A DNA stretch of 64,000 bases from Escherichia coli (GTDB lineage: Bacteria > Pseudomonadota > Gammaproteobacteria > Enterobacterales > Enterobacteriaceae). Location: assembly GCF_048403405.1 (NCBI RefSeq), contig NZ_CP183129.1, one strand, 5' to 3'. Shown piece by piece: positions 39,267 through 45,537 of the stretch; within the stretch, counting starts at the first letter, position 1; the number at the start of each line of letters is the position of its first letter. The notes below the pieces were generated by a model. That model made no database searches and was not told the origin of the DNA. It saw only the letters and a program-made list of their open reading frames with translations. Made by a program: the position numbers and the translations under genes.

Positions 39267-40619
39267 ATGAATAGTAACGGACTGACACAAACTATCGTTA
39301 CCGGCAGTGACCCGCGCGGGCTGCCGGAATTCAGCGCCATCCGCGAGGAAATAAACAAAGCCAGCCATCCGTCACAGCCTGAGCTGAACTGGAAACTGGT
39401 GGAGTCGCTGGCGCTGGCGATTTTTAAAGCCAACGGTGTGGATTTACACACCGCCACCTACTATACGCTTGCCCGGACACGGACACAGGGACTGGCGGGA
39501 TTCTGCGAAGGTGCGGAACTGCTGGCGGCAATGGTAAGCCACGACTGGGATAAATTCTGGCCGCAGGGCGGTCCGGCGCGTACTGAAATGCTGGACTGGT
39601 TTAACTCCCGAACCGGCAATATTCTGCGTCAGCAAATCTCCTTTGCGGAACCCGATCTGCCACTGATCTACCGCACAGAGCGGGCATTGCAGCTTATCTG
39701 CGACAAGCTTCAGCAGGTGGAGCTGAAGCGCGTTCCGCGCGTGGAGAATCTGCTCTATTTTATGCAGAACACGCGTAAGCGGCTTGAACCCCAGCCGAAG
39801 AGTAACGTTGAAAACGCCGTACAGACCACGGTTAGAACACTGATTTATGCCCCGGAAACAACGGCTTCCTCCACGCCAGAAGCGGTAGTGCCTCCCCTGC
39901 CCGACCTGCCTGAGATGAAAGTAGAAGTGCGCAGTCTGTCAGAGAATCCCCCACAGGCCAGTGTGATGAAGCAAGGCAGTACGGTAAGAGGGTTTATCAC
40001 GGGGATCGCCTGTTCAGTGGCTGTCGCCTCAGCATTGTGGTGGTGGCAGGTCTATCCGGTGCAACAGCAACTGTTACAGGTTAACGACACCGCGCAGGGC
40101 GCAGCAACGGTGTGGATGGCCTCACCTGAACTAGAAAACTATGAGCGCAGGCTACAACAGCTTCTTGGCGTCTCCCCGGTACAACCGCTGGAAACCGGGA
40201 TGCAGATGATGCGTGTTGCCGACAGTCGCTGGCCGGAAAGCCTGCAGCAGCAGCAGGCCTCGACACATTGGAATGAAGCACTCAAAACCCGCGCACAGAG
40301 TAGCCCGCAGTTGCGTGGCTGGTTGCAGACCCGTCAGGACTTACATGCTTTTGCAGATCTCGTGATGCGGCGCGAGAAAGAGGGACTAACCCTTTCCTAT
40401 ATCAAAAATGTCATCTGGCAGGCGGAGCGGGGACTGGGGCAGGAAACACCCGTTGAGTCTCTGTTGACGCAGTACCAGGATGCCCGTGCGCAGAAGCAGA
40501 ATATAGATGCGCTGGAAAAACAAATTAATGAGCGACTCGAAGGCGTGTTAATCCGCTGGCTGCTGCTGAAGAATAACGTCATGCCAGAGGCGGCAACCGG
40601 GACCACGGCCGAAAAATAA
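39267..40619 (+). CDS. ImpA_N-domain membrane protein, VasL/TagA-like
   Basis: ORF 39213..40619; start at ATG 39267 with GAGGAGG upstream; ImpA_N-like N-terminus (GLPEFSAIREEINKA), one TM helix (ITGIACSVAVASALWWW), periplasmic C-terminus. Confidence 0.65.
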   Translation: MNSNGLTQTIVTGSDPRGLPEFSAIREEINKASHPSQPELNWKLVESLALAIFKANGVDLHTATYYTLARTRTQGLAGFCEGAELLAAMVSHDWDKFWPQGGPARTEMLDWFNSRTGNILRQQISFAEPDLPLIYRTERALQLICDKLQQVELKRVPRVENLLYFMQNTRKRLEPQPKSNVENAVQTTVRTLIYAPETTASSTPEAVVPPLPDLPEMKVEVRSLSENPPQASVMKQGSTVRGFITGIACSVAVASALWWWQVYPVQQQLLQVNDTAQGAATVWMASPELENYERRLQQLLGVSPVQPLETGMQMMRVADSRWPESLQQQQASTHWNEALKTRAQSSPQLRGWLQTRQDLHAFADLVMRREKEGLTLSYIKNVIWQAERGLGQETPVESLLTQYQDARAQKQNIDALEKQINERLEGVLIRWLLLKNNVMPEAATGTTAEK

Positions 40620-40642
40620 TTATTTAATTAAAGGAGATTATC

Positions 40643-41125
40643 ATGGCAAATATGAGTTATTTATCTTTGAGTGGAGAGACACAAGGGCTGATTTCAGCAG
40701 GTTGCTCAACGCTTGATTCTGTCGGAAACAAAGCACAGCCAGAACATAAAGATCAGATCATGGTTTATGCGTTAATGCATTCCATCTCAAGAAGTCAAAA
40801 TGTCAATCATCATGAATTAATTATCACCAAACCGGTTGATAAATCCTCACCATTGCTGGCAAAAGCACTTAGTGACAATGAAAAAATGGTAACATGTGAA
40901 TTTATACTCTACCGAACCAGTAAAGCGGGTATTTACCAGCCTTATTATAAAATAAACCTGTCAAAAGCCCGAATATCAAGTATTGATTTTGTCACACCGC
41001 ATGCTGTCCTGGAAAAAGAACTGGAGCCACAGGAGAGAATTGCCTTTATTTATGAAGATATTTCCTGGGAGCATACGTTAGCCGGTACGAATGCAATGAG
41101 TAAATGGCAGGATCGTGTACAGTAA
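40643..41125 (+). CDS. Second Hcp-family protein (Hcp2)
   Basis: 160 aa; Hcp-like profile (ELIITKPVDKSSPLLAKALSDNEKM...ISWEH); AAGGAG RBS; last T6SS-type gene of the plus-strand operon. Confidence 0.75.
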   Translation: MANMSYLSLSGETQGLISAGCSTLDSVGNKAQPEHKDQIMVYALMHSISRSQNVNHHELIITKPVDKSSPLLAKALSDNEKMVTCEFILYRTSKAGIYQPYYKINLSKARISSIDFVTPHAVLEKELEPQERIAFIYEDISWEHTLAGTNAMSKWQDRVQ

Positions 41126-41168
41126 TTTACTGTAATAACATAATAAATTACTATTGCGGAGAGATATA

Positions 41169-42083
41169 ATGGCTGGTTTAAGGAATAATAACAACACACA
41201 GAATGCACAGTGGGCTGATTATGTGGGTGACATTCTTCGGGGGGCTCAACCGATAAACCAGCTAGTACCTCAGCACCCTTATCTTAACGACGTCCCACTC
41301 ATTGATGAATTAAGGCGTCAGAACACTCATCATGTTATTCTCTTGACACTTGATGTTGCAAAAAAAATACTCAGCTCAATAACATCATTTGATTACATTC
41401 ATTTTATCACTACACATCCTTCAGGTATAAAAGATACACTCGCTTGGTTAGTTAACGCGGGTAAATTAATGACTGAGTTTGATGGAAATGGGAAAATTAT
41501 ATTTAACTTTAATACCTTAAAGTATACAAAAGCAAGTTACTTTGAAATACTTGGAGAGAAATATATAAAAATTACAACATCCAGCCCCTGGCTTTTAGAA
41601 AAGCTCGGTAAATATATTTTCTCTTCACGAGCGCCTCAAGTTCTGGAACTCGCTATTGGCTGGCGAGGAGCTTTATCTGAATCAATAAAAGGAGTTAAGT
41701 TCTGTATCTGGTTTTCAGTAGCCTGGAGAACCATAGAATTTATTATGAGTTCAGAGCGAGATCTGGTTAATTTTCTTGGTGATTTTTCAATGGATGTGGC
41801 CAAAGCAGTGATTGCAGGCGGTGTTGCAACTGCTATTGGAAGCCTGGCTTCTTTTGCCTGTCTTAGTTTTGGCCTTCCAGTAATTCTTGTAGGAGGAGCA
41901 ATTTTACTTACAGGGATAGTGTGTACAGTTGTTTTAAATGAAATCGATGCTCAATACCATTTATCAGAAAAATTAAAAGATGCAATTAGAGATGGACTAA
42001 AACGGCAACAGGAACTTGATAAATGGAAAAGGGAAAACATGACTCCATTTATGTATGTTCTTAACACTTCCCCCGTGATATGA
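41169..42083 (+). CDS. Hypothetical membrane protein with C-terminal glycine-zipper helical hairpin; candidate Hcp2-dependent effector
   Basis: ORF 41154..42083; ATG 41169; C-terminal AKAVIAGGVATAIGSLASFACLSFGLPVILVGGAILLTGIVCTVVL; visibly AT-rich; 43 bp after hcp2. Confidence 0.45.
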   Translation: MAGLRNNNNTQNAQWADYVGDILRGAQPINQLVPQHPYLNDVPLIDELRRQNTHHVILLTLDVAKKILSSITSFDYIHFITTHPSGIKDTLAWLVNAGKLMTEFDGNGKIIFNFNTLKYTKASYFEILGEKYIKITTSSPWLLEKLGKYIFSSRAPQVLELAIGWRGALSESIKGVKFCIWFSVAWRTIEFIMSSERDLVNFLGDFSMDVAKAVIAGGVATAIGSLASFACLSFGLPVILVGGAILLTGIVCTVVLNEIDAQYHLSEKLKDAIRDGLKRQQELDKWKRENMTPFMYVLNTSPVI

Positions 42084-42247
42084 GGATTAACTATGCGTTT
42101 ACATGTTAAATTGAAAGAGTTTTTTTCGATGTTTTTTATAGCCATATTATTTTTCCCTGCATTCAATGCTTCTTTATTTTTTACCGGAATTAGGTGATGC
42201 TGCCAACTTACTGATTTAGTGTATGATGGTGTTTTTGAGGTGCTCCA

Positions 42248-42523
42248 GTGGCTTCTGTTTCTATCAGCTGTCCCTCCTGTTCAGCTACTGACGGGGTGGT
42301 GCGTAACGGCAAAAGCACCGCCGGACATCAGCGCTATCTCTGCTCTCACTGCCGTAAAACATGGCAACTGCAGTTCACTTACACCGCTTCTCAACCCGGT
42401 ACGCACCAGAAAATCATTGATATGGCCATGAATGGCGTTGGATGCCGGGCAACCGCCCGCATTATGGGCGTTGGCCTCAACACGATTTTCCGCCATTTAA
42501 AAAACTCAGGCCGCAGTCGGTAA
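42248..42523 (+). CDS. insA: IS1 InsA
   Basis: 91 aa [30 protein letters not shown]... Confidence 0.95.
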
Positions 42524-42945
42524 CCTCGCGCATACAGCCGGGCAGTGACGTCATCGTCTGCGCGGAAATGGACGAACAGTGGGGATACGTCGGGGCTAAA
42601 TCGCGCCAGCGCTGGCTGTTTTACGCGTATGACAGGCTCCGGAAGACGGTTGTTGCGCACGTATTCGGTGAACGCACTCTGGCCACACTGGAGCGTCTTC
42701 TAAGCCTGCTGTCGGCCTTTGAGGTCGTGGTATGGATGACGGATGGCTGGCCGCTGTATGAATCCCGCCTGAAGGGAAAGCTGCACGTAATCAGCAAGCG
42801 TTACACTCAGCGAATTGAGCGGCATAACCTGAATCTGAGACAACATCTGGCAAGGCTGGGACGGAAGTCACTGTCGTTCTCAAAATCGGTGGAGCTGCAT
42901 GACAAGGTCATCGGGCATTATCTGAACATAAAACACTATCAGTAA
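42442..42945 (+). CDS. insB: IS1 InsB (expressed as InsAB' by -1 frameshift)
   Basis: 167 aa ORF overlapping insA 3' end in the -1 frame. Confidence 0.9.
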
Positions 42946-43450
42946 GTTGGAGTCATTACCCGGAATTAAACCTCTATATTCAATAATAAAAGGCTCCACG
43001 GAAATATTTTATGATTGGAGAATGTTGATTCTATGCTTCGGTTTCATATCGTTTTCCTTGTTAAATATTCATGTAATTTTACTAACAATAATAAAATCAT
43101 TCTTAATAAAAAAAACAAAGGTAATCAATTTCGCCACAGACATAACAATACAGCTAACTCTTATATTTTTACTAATAGCTATCGTAATAGCACCTTTAAT
43201 AGCTCCTTTTGTCACAGGATATGTCAATGCTAATTGTCACCCCTGCGGTAATAACACGGGGATTTTCCCAGGAGCAATCTATATTAAAAATGGCATAAAA
43301 TGTAATAATGAACATATTTCTCGCAAGGAAGATTAAGCAGTTAAATAATTAAATATTCTAAAACAAACAGTTTTTAACGCCGGATTCCATGTCCTTTCTT
43401 GCACTGTCTTTGTCAGGAACAATTTCTTATGCAAAGAATTTTGTATTATT

Positions 43451-43472
43451 GCCGCCAGAAATTCCTGGCGGC
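43451..43472. terminator. Hairpin between convergent membrane-protein gene and yafT
   Basis: gccgccag-aaattc-ctggcggc perfect inverted repeat in A/T-rich context. Confidence 0.5.
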
Positions 43473-43484
43473 AGATATAATTTA

Positions 43485-44270
43485 TTATTGATAGCGGTTA
43501 ACCAAATCTTTTACCATCGCTTTATAGGTCTTTTGCTTAAGTTGTATGATTTGCTGCTCTGTCATATCAGTCGTACTGGCTTCATTCTTGCCGGGAAATG
43601 GTGGAAGCACTTTATATTCATAATTCACCGGCGACCAGGCAGCCCACTCACCTGTAGCTACATCCACCAGCGTGAATCGCACCAGATAGCGCAGTGAGAT
43701 TGTGTTAGTCAGTTTTTCATTTTTATAATCGGACCATACTGTTGATTTCAGTGCAGTGTCATATTTTCCTGTCTGCAACGTATCCTGGTAAACAATAATC
43801 GCTTTCTGATGGCCTTTTGCCGCCACAAAACGTAATGCCTGCATCCAGTTCATATTTTCAGCACTGGCAACATCCTCGTTCTCATTTTTATCTTTGTTTT
43901 TGTTACAAGTCAGAGGCTTTTGTCTGTCCGGGATACCAGAGAATGTGGAAACAGTATAATATTTTCGCATCTCCTCCTGCATAATGGTTTCCGGTGCGCG
44001 ACTGCCAGACTGGACAAGTATTACGGGAGAATTGAGAGGCACACGAAACTCATCTCCTTCAAGCGCAGCCTGAATATCCTCCTCGGATACAGCCAGAGTG
44101 GTTTCATTACCGAATAAATCTTTGTCTGTCAGTTGCGGGGGAATGTTTTTATTAATATTACTTTGTGTAACTTGAACTTTTTTCTTTTTTTCATCAATAG
44201 AAGATTGAGAGGCACATCCTGCAAGCAGCGAGAATAATACACATATGCAACAAACCTTTTTTGAATTCAT
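43485..44270 (-). CDS. yafT: Lipoprotein YafT
   Basis: 261 aa with lipobox (LLAGC); position adjacent to aspV as I recall for K-12. Confidence 0.75.
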
Positions 44271-44531
44271 AATCGGACACTCCCTCGCCTGTCATAATGA
44301 TTAGAATATTTAGCACTGATAACGGACTCTAATTATATACCCCACTTAAATAATAACAAACAAAATCAACATGAAATATACATTCATTTAATCAATATAA
44401 AATTATTCACTAAAAATATATTTAAGTTGAATGGTTCGATATCATTATTGAATTTTAATAAATGAGACAACAAGCGAGAGTTACGCACTTACGCCAGAGT
44501 AAAATCATTGAACAGAGAAATATCGTGATTT

Positions 44532-44568
44532 AAATGCAAAAAAACCGCAAAATTAAAAATTTTGCGGT
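44532..44568 (-). terminator. Intrinsic terminator downstream of aspV
   Basis: accgcaaaatt / aattttgcggt stem followed on the minus strand by TTTTTTGCATTT. Confidence 0.6.
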
Positions 44569-44596
44569 TCTCTGAACTCATTTTCATGAGTGAATT

Positions 44597-44673
44597 TGGC
44601 GGAACGGACGGGACTCGAACCCGCGACCCCCTGCGTGACAGGCAGGTATTCTAACCGACTGAACTACCGCTCC
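44597..44673 (-). tRNA. aspV: tRNA-Asp (GTC)
   Basis: Reverse complement is GGAGCGGTAGTTCAGTCGGTTAGAATACCTGCCTGTCACGCAGGGGGTCGCGGGTTCGAGTCCCGTCCGTTCCGCCA. Confidence 0.97.
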
Positions 44674-44805
44674 GCGTTGTGTTCCGTTGGGAACGAGGCG
44701 AATATTACGGATTGCCTCACCCTTCGTCAACGGTTTTTCTCATCTTTTGAATCGTTTGCTGCAAAAATCGCCCAAGTCGCTATTTTTAGCGCCTTTTACA
44801 GGTAT

Positions 44806-45537
44806 TTATGCCCGCCAGAGGCAGCTTCCGCCCTTTTTCTGCACCAGATCGAGACGGGCTTCATGTGCCGCAAGCTCTTCATCTGTCGCAAAAACAACGC
44901 GTAACTTACTTGCCTGACGCACAATGCGCTGAATTGTTGTTTCACCTTGTTGCTGTTGTGTCTCTCCTTCCATCGCAAAAGCCATCGACGTTTGACCACC
45001 AGTCATCGCCAGATAAACTTCCGCAAGGATCTGGGCATCGAGTAATGCCCCGTGCAACGTTCGTTTACTGTTATCTATTTCGTAGCGGGCACATAACGCA
45101 TCGAGGCTGTTGCGCTTACCGGGAAACATTCTCCTCGCCACCGCAAGGCTATCGGTGACCTTACAGAAGGTATTGGTCTTCGGAATATCGCGCTTAAGCA
45201 ACGAAAACTCGTAGTCCATAAAGCCGATATCGAACGCTGCGTTATGGATCACCAACTCCGCGCCGCGAATATAGTCCATGAACTCATCGGCTACTTCGGC
45301 AAACGTGGGCTTATCGAGCAAAAATTCATCGGCAATACCATGTACGCCAAAGGCTTCCGGATCCACCAGCCGATCGGGTTTGAGATAAACATGGAAGTTA
45401 TTGCCCGTCAGGCGACGGTTCACCACTTCAACGGCACCAATCTCAATGATCTTGTGGCCTTCATAGTGCGCGCCAATCTGGTTCATACCGGTGGTTTCGG
45501 TATCGAGAACGATCTGGCGTGTAATTGCAGTGCTCAT
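44806..45537 (-). CDS. dnaQ: DNA polymerase III epsilon subunit (3'-5' proofreading exonuclease)
   Basis: ORF 44806..45546; start at [19 protein letters not shown] (ATG 45535-45537), 243 aa. Confidence 0.9.

Follow-up and report, generated by a model that had tools for sequence, protein, structure and literature searches.

We found that a complete IS1 element interrupts ykfM, the predicted immunity gene of the adjoining effector gene tme, in an Escherichia coli isolate whose tme and type VI secretion (T6SS-2) genes are intact. The locus lies in a stretch of 64,000 nt (hereafter the window), and its features are listed in Table 1. The insertion is most probably a plain knock-out of ykfM that leaves Tme and T6SS-2 untouched and that is tolerated because Tme would do its harm by way of the periplasm and T6SS-2 is silenced by H-NS. 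We consider such a tolerated loss of immunity more likely than either option of the original prediction, which held that the toxin is already inactive or that the C-terminal part of the immunity protein is still made from IS1.

Table 1. Coordinates of the features of the window that are discussed in the text.
Feature	Position	Strand	Remarks
3-nt in-frame indel relative to MS 69-1	17113-17115	-	Rhs element core protein gene
hcp (Hcp2A-type tube protein)	40643..41125	+	TIGR03344, E 1e-60; WP_000002621.1 in MS 69-1
tme	41169..42083	+	304-aa predicted Tme-family membrane-disrupting T6SS effector; intact
ykfM 5' fragment	42093..42192	+	codons 1-33 and first base of codon 34
Product of the native ykfM start	from 42093, stop 42195-42197	+	34-aa TM1-only peptide ending ...FFTGIR
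Target-site duplication, left copy (cggaatta)	42185..42192		abuts IS1
IS1, complete	42193..42960	+	768 bp; same orientation as ykfM
IS1 terminal inverted repeats	IRL 42193-42215, IRR 42938-42960		23 nt, imperfect
Promoter-like site of IS1	42200-42227		consensus scan
insA	42248-42523	+	open frame, 91 aa
insB frame	42442-42945	+	open, 167 aa; overlaps insA
ORF with TTG start in the right end of IS1	42947..43336	+	129 codons; mechanical call, expression hypothetical
Target-site duplication, right copy (cggaatta)	42961..42968		abuts IS1
ykfM 3' fragment	42969..43336	+	codons 34-155: periplasmic loop 1, TM2, TM3, periplasmic Cys-containing C-terminal tail
A8 homopolymer in ykfM	43108..43115	+	encodes KK of LIKKTK; slippage hot spot in other strains
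Terminator-like hairpin	43449..43474	+	between convergent ykfM and yafT
yafT (lipoprotein gene)	43485..44270	-	convergent with ykfM
tRNA-Asp (aspV)	44597..44673	-	chromosomal anchor of the T6SS-2 island
SNP relative to MS 69-1	45019	-	dnaQ codon 173

The IS1 element and its empty site

The inserted element has the ~768-bp length and the ~23-bp imperfect ends starting GGTxATG that mark IS1. It begins with GGTGATGCTGCC and ends with GAGTCATTACC, and its IRL and IRR are 83% complementary, as determined with a repeat finder and by inspection of the sequence. The hallmark of IS1 is insA and an overlapping insB' that are joined by -1 frameshifting at an A6C motif; both frames are open in this copy, and the motif, TTAAAAAACTC, lies at ~42495. 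Furthermore, many IS1 transposase loci annotated on E. coli chromosomes and resistance plasmids match the element at 100% identity over 768 nt, and the inserted copy looks active. In its length, repeats, insA/insB arrangement, A6C motif, 8-9-bp duplication and AT-rich target it is the same as known IS1, from which it differs in location alone.

Identical copies of an octanucleotide flank the element. The repeat finder reported these as a 9-nt repeat, ccggaatta (42184-92 and 42960-68), since IS1 itself ends in c. We rejected a 9-bp duplication, which requires an IS1 without its terminal C, in favor of an 8-bp duplication with the canonical 768-bp ends. Chance repeats of 8-9 nt are frequent where the sequence is as AT-rich as here (the repeat finder gave 20 families within 1.5 kb); we counted this duplication as real because its copies abut the IS1 ends exactly and because cggaatta is single-copy in the empty site of E. 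coli MS 69-1. Excision of IS1 together with one repeat copy gave an ORF of 468 nt and 155 aa, which carries the RefSeq name ykfM, and the excised sequence aligned to MS 69-1 in one piece over 2,211 nt at 100.0% identity. The element ends, the repeats and the MS 69-1 empty site therefore agree with the complete 768-bp IS1 and intact 8-bp duplication of the original prediction, and the single ORF that it expected on removal of IS1 and one duplicate was recovered with all 155 codons. The insertion is a simple IS1 transposition.

Comparison with MS 69-1 also revealed how little the two isolates have diverged. The 21,550 nt from tssB to the insertion point (window 20643-42192) are 100% identical between them, and the 20.7 kb after the insertion (window 42956-63629) are 99.99% identical, the remainder consisting of one SNP and an artefact of the alignment at the junction. 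The first 21.3 kb contain one SNP (position 10350) and a 3-nt in-frame indel, so that over the whole 64 kb, IS1 aside, the isolates differ by 2 SNPs and one 3-nt indel. Residue 173 of DnaQ is E in the window, which is the consensus and is likewise found in another strain, and D in MS 69-1; since the window isolate has the consensus residue and MS 69-1 has D, the two are siblings rather than parent and child. It follows from their near-identity that the insertion is very recent, as was originally proposed from the sequence.

The left IS1 junction was present in 0 of 5,426 complete E. coli genomes. In addition, exact look-ups of the 34-aa, 129-aa and 104-aa fragment products, carried out to find other assemblies with the insertion, returned none on record. 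Because the junction is absent from the 5,426 genomes and the fragment products are off record, ykfM::IS1 looks like a private, very young and possibly transient allele of one isolate. The uninterrupted hcp-tme-ykfM locus, at least 80% covered, was found in 2,561 of the same genomes; the sequence search thus located in relatives the intact allele that the original prediction had proposed to look for. In 37 complete E. coli genomes IS1 is found elsewhere around the locus (for example L001 7707-8404 and L002 3058-3755); one copy lies between ykfM and yafT, and another just upstream of tme at a locus where the T6SS is deleted and a truncated vgrG adjoins. This AT-rich end of the island appears to be an IS1-prone region.

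Tme and YkfM at the end of the T6SS-2 cluster

The interrupted gene is the last gene of the operon of T6SS-2, the aspV island. The T6SS genes of the window are tssB, C, E, F, G, tagH, tssJ, K, L, H, vasI, tssA, tssM, a VasL-domain gene and hcp, which is the last structural gene of the main operon; it is followed by the gene of a 304-aa 'hypothetical protein' (tme), ykfM and the convergent yafT. The upstream arm, hcp-vgrG-Rhs, is divergent. The gene order and this divergent arm are as in the T6SS-2 of avian pathogenic and neonatal meningitis E. coli (APEC/NMEC; Ma et al. 2018, PMC5874247), where the last hcp is named hcp2A. The pair XmtU/XmtV of that study is located on the hcp2B arm and is not the pair behind hcp2A. 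For this type of cluster, H-NS is reported to repress hcp2A and clpV2 in rich medium. The T6SS-2 cluster is identical to that of the sister strain MS 69-1. An Rfam scan of positions 40000-45000 gave the tRNA as its sole match. Elsewhere in the window (~1010-3479), lafU and an N-terminally truncated flhA are what is left of the Flag-2 lateral flagellar cluster, according to the MS 69-1 annotation.

The T6SS-2 cluster is complete, and tme is located at its end, 43 nt downstream of hcp. Fridman et al. (2020; PMC7046647) defined the Tme family as membrane-disrupting T6SS effectors and proposed DUF1240 and DUF1240-like proteins as the Tmi immunity family. They reported that Tme1 and Tme2 of Vibrio parahaemolyticus are toxic in the periplasm, that Tme1 is harmless in the cytoplasm, and that Tmi1 and Tmi2 are immunity proteins specific for the cognate Tme. 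Delivery by a T6SS and depolarization of the membrane from the periplasm have been shown for these two Vibrio effectors alone. Supplementary Data 5 of that paper lists WP_000908072.1 of E. coli MS 69-1 (304 aa; Tme domain 122-277, E 1.74e-37), with Hcp WP_000002621.1 upstream of it and, 9 nt downstream, WP_001236628.1 of 155 aa, for which Phobius gives three transmembrane helices (i12-32o52-75i96-119o). The proteins of the window are these accessions, because the DNA, including tme itself, is 100% identical to that of MS 69-1.

We examined whether the predicted effector retains the features of its family. Its D209-V-A-K212 (DxxK) motif, hydrophobic region 213-259 and D260 do not vary among 10 homologs, which range down to 35% identity, and the window Tme keeps every invariant motif residue. 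No significant Pfam or NCBIfam family was found for the 304-aa protein, whose domain is without a model in either database. In a PDB sequence search the only match, of the hydrophobic region to AhlB, was insignificant (E 0.91), and the AlphaFold2 model, made from a 10-sequence alignment, was poor (pLDDT 45.6). Residues 1-45 of Tme (41169-41303) are almost invariant even between homologs that are 35% identical overall, with Y18, G20, L23, G25, N30, P34, H36 and Y38 near-invariant. This N-terminus of ~45 residues belongs to no described family and resembles a common motif for delivery or for Hcp loading.

YkfM begins at an ATG that is separated from the tme stop by 9 nt (42083 and 42093). Hydrophobic segments were found at residues 10-33, 51-81 and 85-121 by hydropathy, and helices at 2-31, 50-78 and 83-122 in an AlphaFold2 model that was of moderate quality (pLDDT 71) and was taken for secondary structure only. 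The protein thus has three of the three to six transmembrane helices that characterize Tmi proteins. Searches with hmmscan against Pfam and NCBIfam gave no significant family and no PF06836 match above threshold, and a PDB sequence search returned nothing. YkfM is, however, 49% identical over its full length (E 3e-46) to the PF06836 (DUF1240) protein at the orthologous position in Salmonella, and a protein 68% identical to it (P0031) carries PF06836. An alignment of 13 YkfM-family sequences, down to 18-28% identity, showed that F20 is invariant and G32 near-invariant, both in the N-terminal part that the insertion separates, and that C126, Y138, K140 and C145 of the tail are invariant and common to remote members. 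We therefore predict from the sequence that YkfM belongs to the DUF1240/Tmi family, spans the inner membrane with three helices and is the immunity protein for Tme. Three short N-terminal fragments of YkfM in the public protein collection (P0065, P0068 and P0070) were considered as other insertions and rejected: their ends are translated Illumina/Nextera adapter (…CLLYTSDAADE…, …LSLIHISEPTRR…), and they stem from adapter-contaminated contigs and are not real alleles.

The gene order is found outside E. coli as well. In Salmonella enterica a Tme homolog of 63% identity follows hcp and is itself followed by a DUF1240 (PF06836) gene, and an orphan locus in Rahnella has the order tme-DUF1240-hcp, with hcp adjacent. 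The Salmonella locus holds, in addition, a 169-aa ORF with the conserved Tme N-terminus and then a second DUF1240 gene (L007 7586-8095 and 8555-9010), so that Tme/Tmi modules stand in a row there, of which one is truncated. The E. coli genes resemble the known Tme/Tmi pairs in that the effector likewise ends in a C-terminal DxxK-TM-D arrangement and stands directly behind a T6SS gene (hcp), in that a three-helix DUF1240-like protein is encoded 9 nt downstream, and in that the same accessions appear in the family table of PMC7046647. They differ from Tme1/Tmi1 and Tme2/Tmi2 of Vibrio in that the pair was assigned by bioinformatics, in that YkfM falls below the Pfam DUF1240 threshold, and in that the immunity gene is interrupted here while the effector is intact. 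The toxin/immunity reading is well supported by family membership as a predicted pair, and the original proposal that the split gene is a candidate immunity partner of the upstream toxin gains from that published pairing and from the DUF1240 gene at the same position in Salmonella and Rahnella. The Tme and YkfM pair is already in the literature (PMC7046647), and IS1, Tme, YkfM/Tmi and T6SS-2 are all catalogued. In our literature searches no paper was found to mention ykfM in connection with a T6SS, and no experiment on the E. coli pair came to light.

Retention and loss of ykfM in other E. coli

The restored ykfM ORF is widely conserved in E. coli, and its presence in the 2,561 genomes answers the concern that it might be absent from relatives. 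We inspected 12 complete genomes, taken evenly down the match ranking, for the integrity of tme and ykfM. The immunity gene was intact in all 12, while a frameshift had made a pseudogene of tme in three (L019, L022, L024; 527-1442). Strain K-12 has an intact ykfM and yafT beside the last ~119 codons of tme, annotated as yafU; its ykfM/yafU are at the same aspV-proximal locus as the window and its ykfM is the same gene. K-12 has thus lost the toxin and kept the immunity gene, whereas the window shows the reverse. The usual direction of decay is loss of the toxin with ykfM kept, opposite to that in the window. Since ykfM is intact in 12 of 12 genomes while tme decays, and since K-12 keeps ykfM beside a remnant, the gene seems as a rule to be kept by selection, so that losing it should come at a cost; this counts against the knock-out reading given below.

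Loss in the same direction as in the window has a precedent. The A8 tract of ykfM has a recorded -1 allele, A7, in which gene calling yields two fragments (P0042-like and P0037) and which is found in ~1,960 blocks of the assembly collection. The A7 allele belongs to the same clade as the window, with a tme that is 99.9% identical, and in 4 of the 6 loci shown (L009-L014, position ~4068) it stands beside an intact 304-aa tme. Further slippage variants occur in the clade of the 159-aa allele of ykfM. A BLAST count of A7 and A8 alleles in complete genomes was discarded, as masking and identity bands cannot split a 1-nt indel from SNPs. Some A7 alleles may be homopolymer sequencing errors, but the allele is too widely recorded to be sequencing error alone, and the tract could be a mutational hot spot or a site of phase variation. 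A sister lineage with an A7-frameshifted ykfM and an intact tme is therefore a precedent for losing the immunity gene with the toxin kept, and it favors the view that such a loss is tolerated.

These frameshifted alleles beside an intact tme are also an argument for a different reading of the insertion. It would be neutral if E. coli did not need YkfM for its immunity: this Tme might not harm its own producer, or YkfM might serve a different function in the membrane or under stress. The pairing of Tme with YkfM is itself a bioinformatic assignment, and the sole reported phenotype of ykfM, in a K-12 background with a tme remnant and no T6SS-2, is that ykfM::Tn5 alters killing by the stressors nalidixic acid, mitomycin C and SDS. 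However, the tme-DUF1240 order is shared by Escherichia, Salmonella and Rahnella and is seen in an orphan locus too, ykfM is kept after tme is lost or decays, as an orphan immunity gene would be, and the experimentally validated Tmi1 and Tmi2 are specific immunity proteins (PMC7046647). We consider dispensability unlikely. It is similarly improbable that Tmi is lost recurrently and not by accident with Tme and T6SS-2 kept, by IS1 in the window and by A8-to-A7 slippage in a sister lineage, whether ykfM is a phase-variable switch of self-immunity or Tme is not self-toxic and YkfM serves another membrane function.

Consequences of the insertion

IS1 transposed very recently into codon 34, and under the reading that we prefer this is a plain knock-out of ykfM. 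Codon 33 is the last one before the split, which lies where TM1 reaches the periplasm, in agreement with the original prediction that the first 33 codons are separated from the rest. The native start retains its Shine-Dalgarno pairing (-6.1 kcal/mol) and now yields the 34-aa TM1 peptide only. The remaining 122 native codons have lost their promoter-proximal context, ribosome-binding site and TM1; the 124 codons originally ascribed to the 3' part include G32 and I33, which are re-encoded by the right repeat copy. The insertion leaves the toxin gene, the secretion apparatus and the downstream genes unaffected, and there is no downstream gene on which IS1 polarity could act because yafT is convergent.

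The either/or of the original prediction, in which the toxin is already inactive or the C-terminal 124 codons are expressed from IS1, was not supported. An inactive toxin is at odds with a tme and a T6SS-2 that are identical to those of the intact MS 69-1 and with the retention of the invariant residues. The second option, that a truncated YkfM (residues 32-155 with a 5-residue IS1 leader, or a shorter form from an internal start) is made by read-out from IS1 and still protects, has several points in its favor. The TTG at 42947 does lie in frame inside the IS1 end, as stated, and opens an ORF of 129 codons; IS1 is co-oriented with ykfM, so that insAB transcripts from its promoter-like site could leave by the right end; GGAG precedes an internal TTG (43025) by 4 nt, with a pairing of -6.4 kcal/mol; and the K-rich cytoplasmic loop 76-95 might suffice to orient TM2 and TM3. 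Against this, the pairing at TTG 42947 is +0.7 kcal/mol, that is, no Shine-Dalgarno at all, and a consensus promoter scan found nothing promoter-like at the right IS1 junction. The product of TTG 42947 is without TM1 and the invariant F20, the near-invariant G32 being re-encoded, and the product of TTG 43025 starts at TM2 and is without the near-invariant G32, I46 and Y48 as well. No such product is among the recorded gene calls. InsA auto-represses the IS1 promoter, which is weak, and polarity is the classical effect of an IS1 insertion; both points also count against a truncated YkfM. A protective fragment is very unlikely. Trace expression of a fragment, by low-level read-through from IS1 or the operon or by internal initiation at TTG 43025, is conceivable, but nothing supports it.

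It is extremely unlikely that the assembly put IS1 into ykfM in error, by collapse or misplacement of a repeat. In favor of such an artefact are the number of IS1 copies (a median of 11 places per genome), the fact that misjoins usually arise at repeats, and the occurrence of the junction in 0 of 5,426 complete genomes. A misjoin, however, would not give a perfect duplication abutting both canonical IS1 ends, nor would it leave flanks that rejoin base-perfect to a sister genome.

We infer that the knock-out of ykfM is survived for two reasons. Tme may be harmful only once it is delivered to the periplasm by a firing T6SS; because Tme1 and Tme2 of Vibrio are toxic in the periplasm and Tme1 is harmless in the cytoplasm, a producer without immunity would be harmed only by firing sisters. 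T6SS-2 is normally silenced by H-NS, so that the cost would surface only when the system is on, as sibling killing or as vulnerability to kin.

The insertion is otherwise an ordinary strain-specific IS1 knock-out, and its practical value is small. The case is also a warning to annotators: ykfM should be read as a Tmi gene, and yafU of K-12 as a remnant of tme. The window isolate and MS 69-1 form a natural near-isogenic pair that differs in ykfM, and this pair could be used for a first test of YkfM as the immunity protein of the T6SS-2 effector Tme. If the recurrent-loss reading, which we consider improbable, is true, ykfM would be a contingency locus that turns self-immunity off and on.
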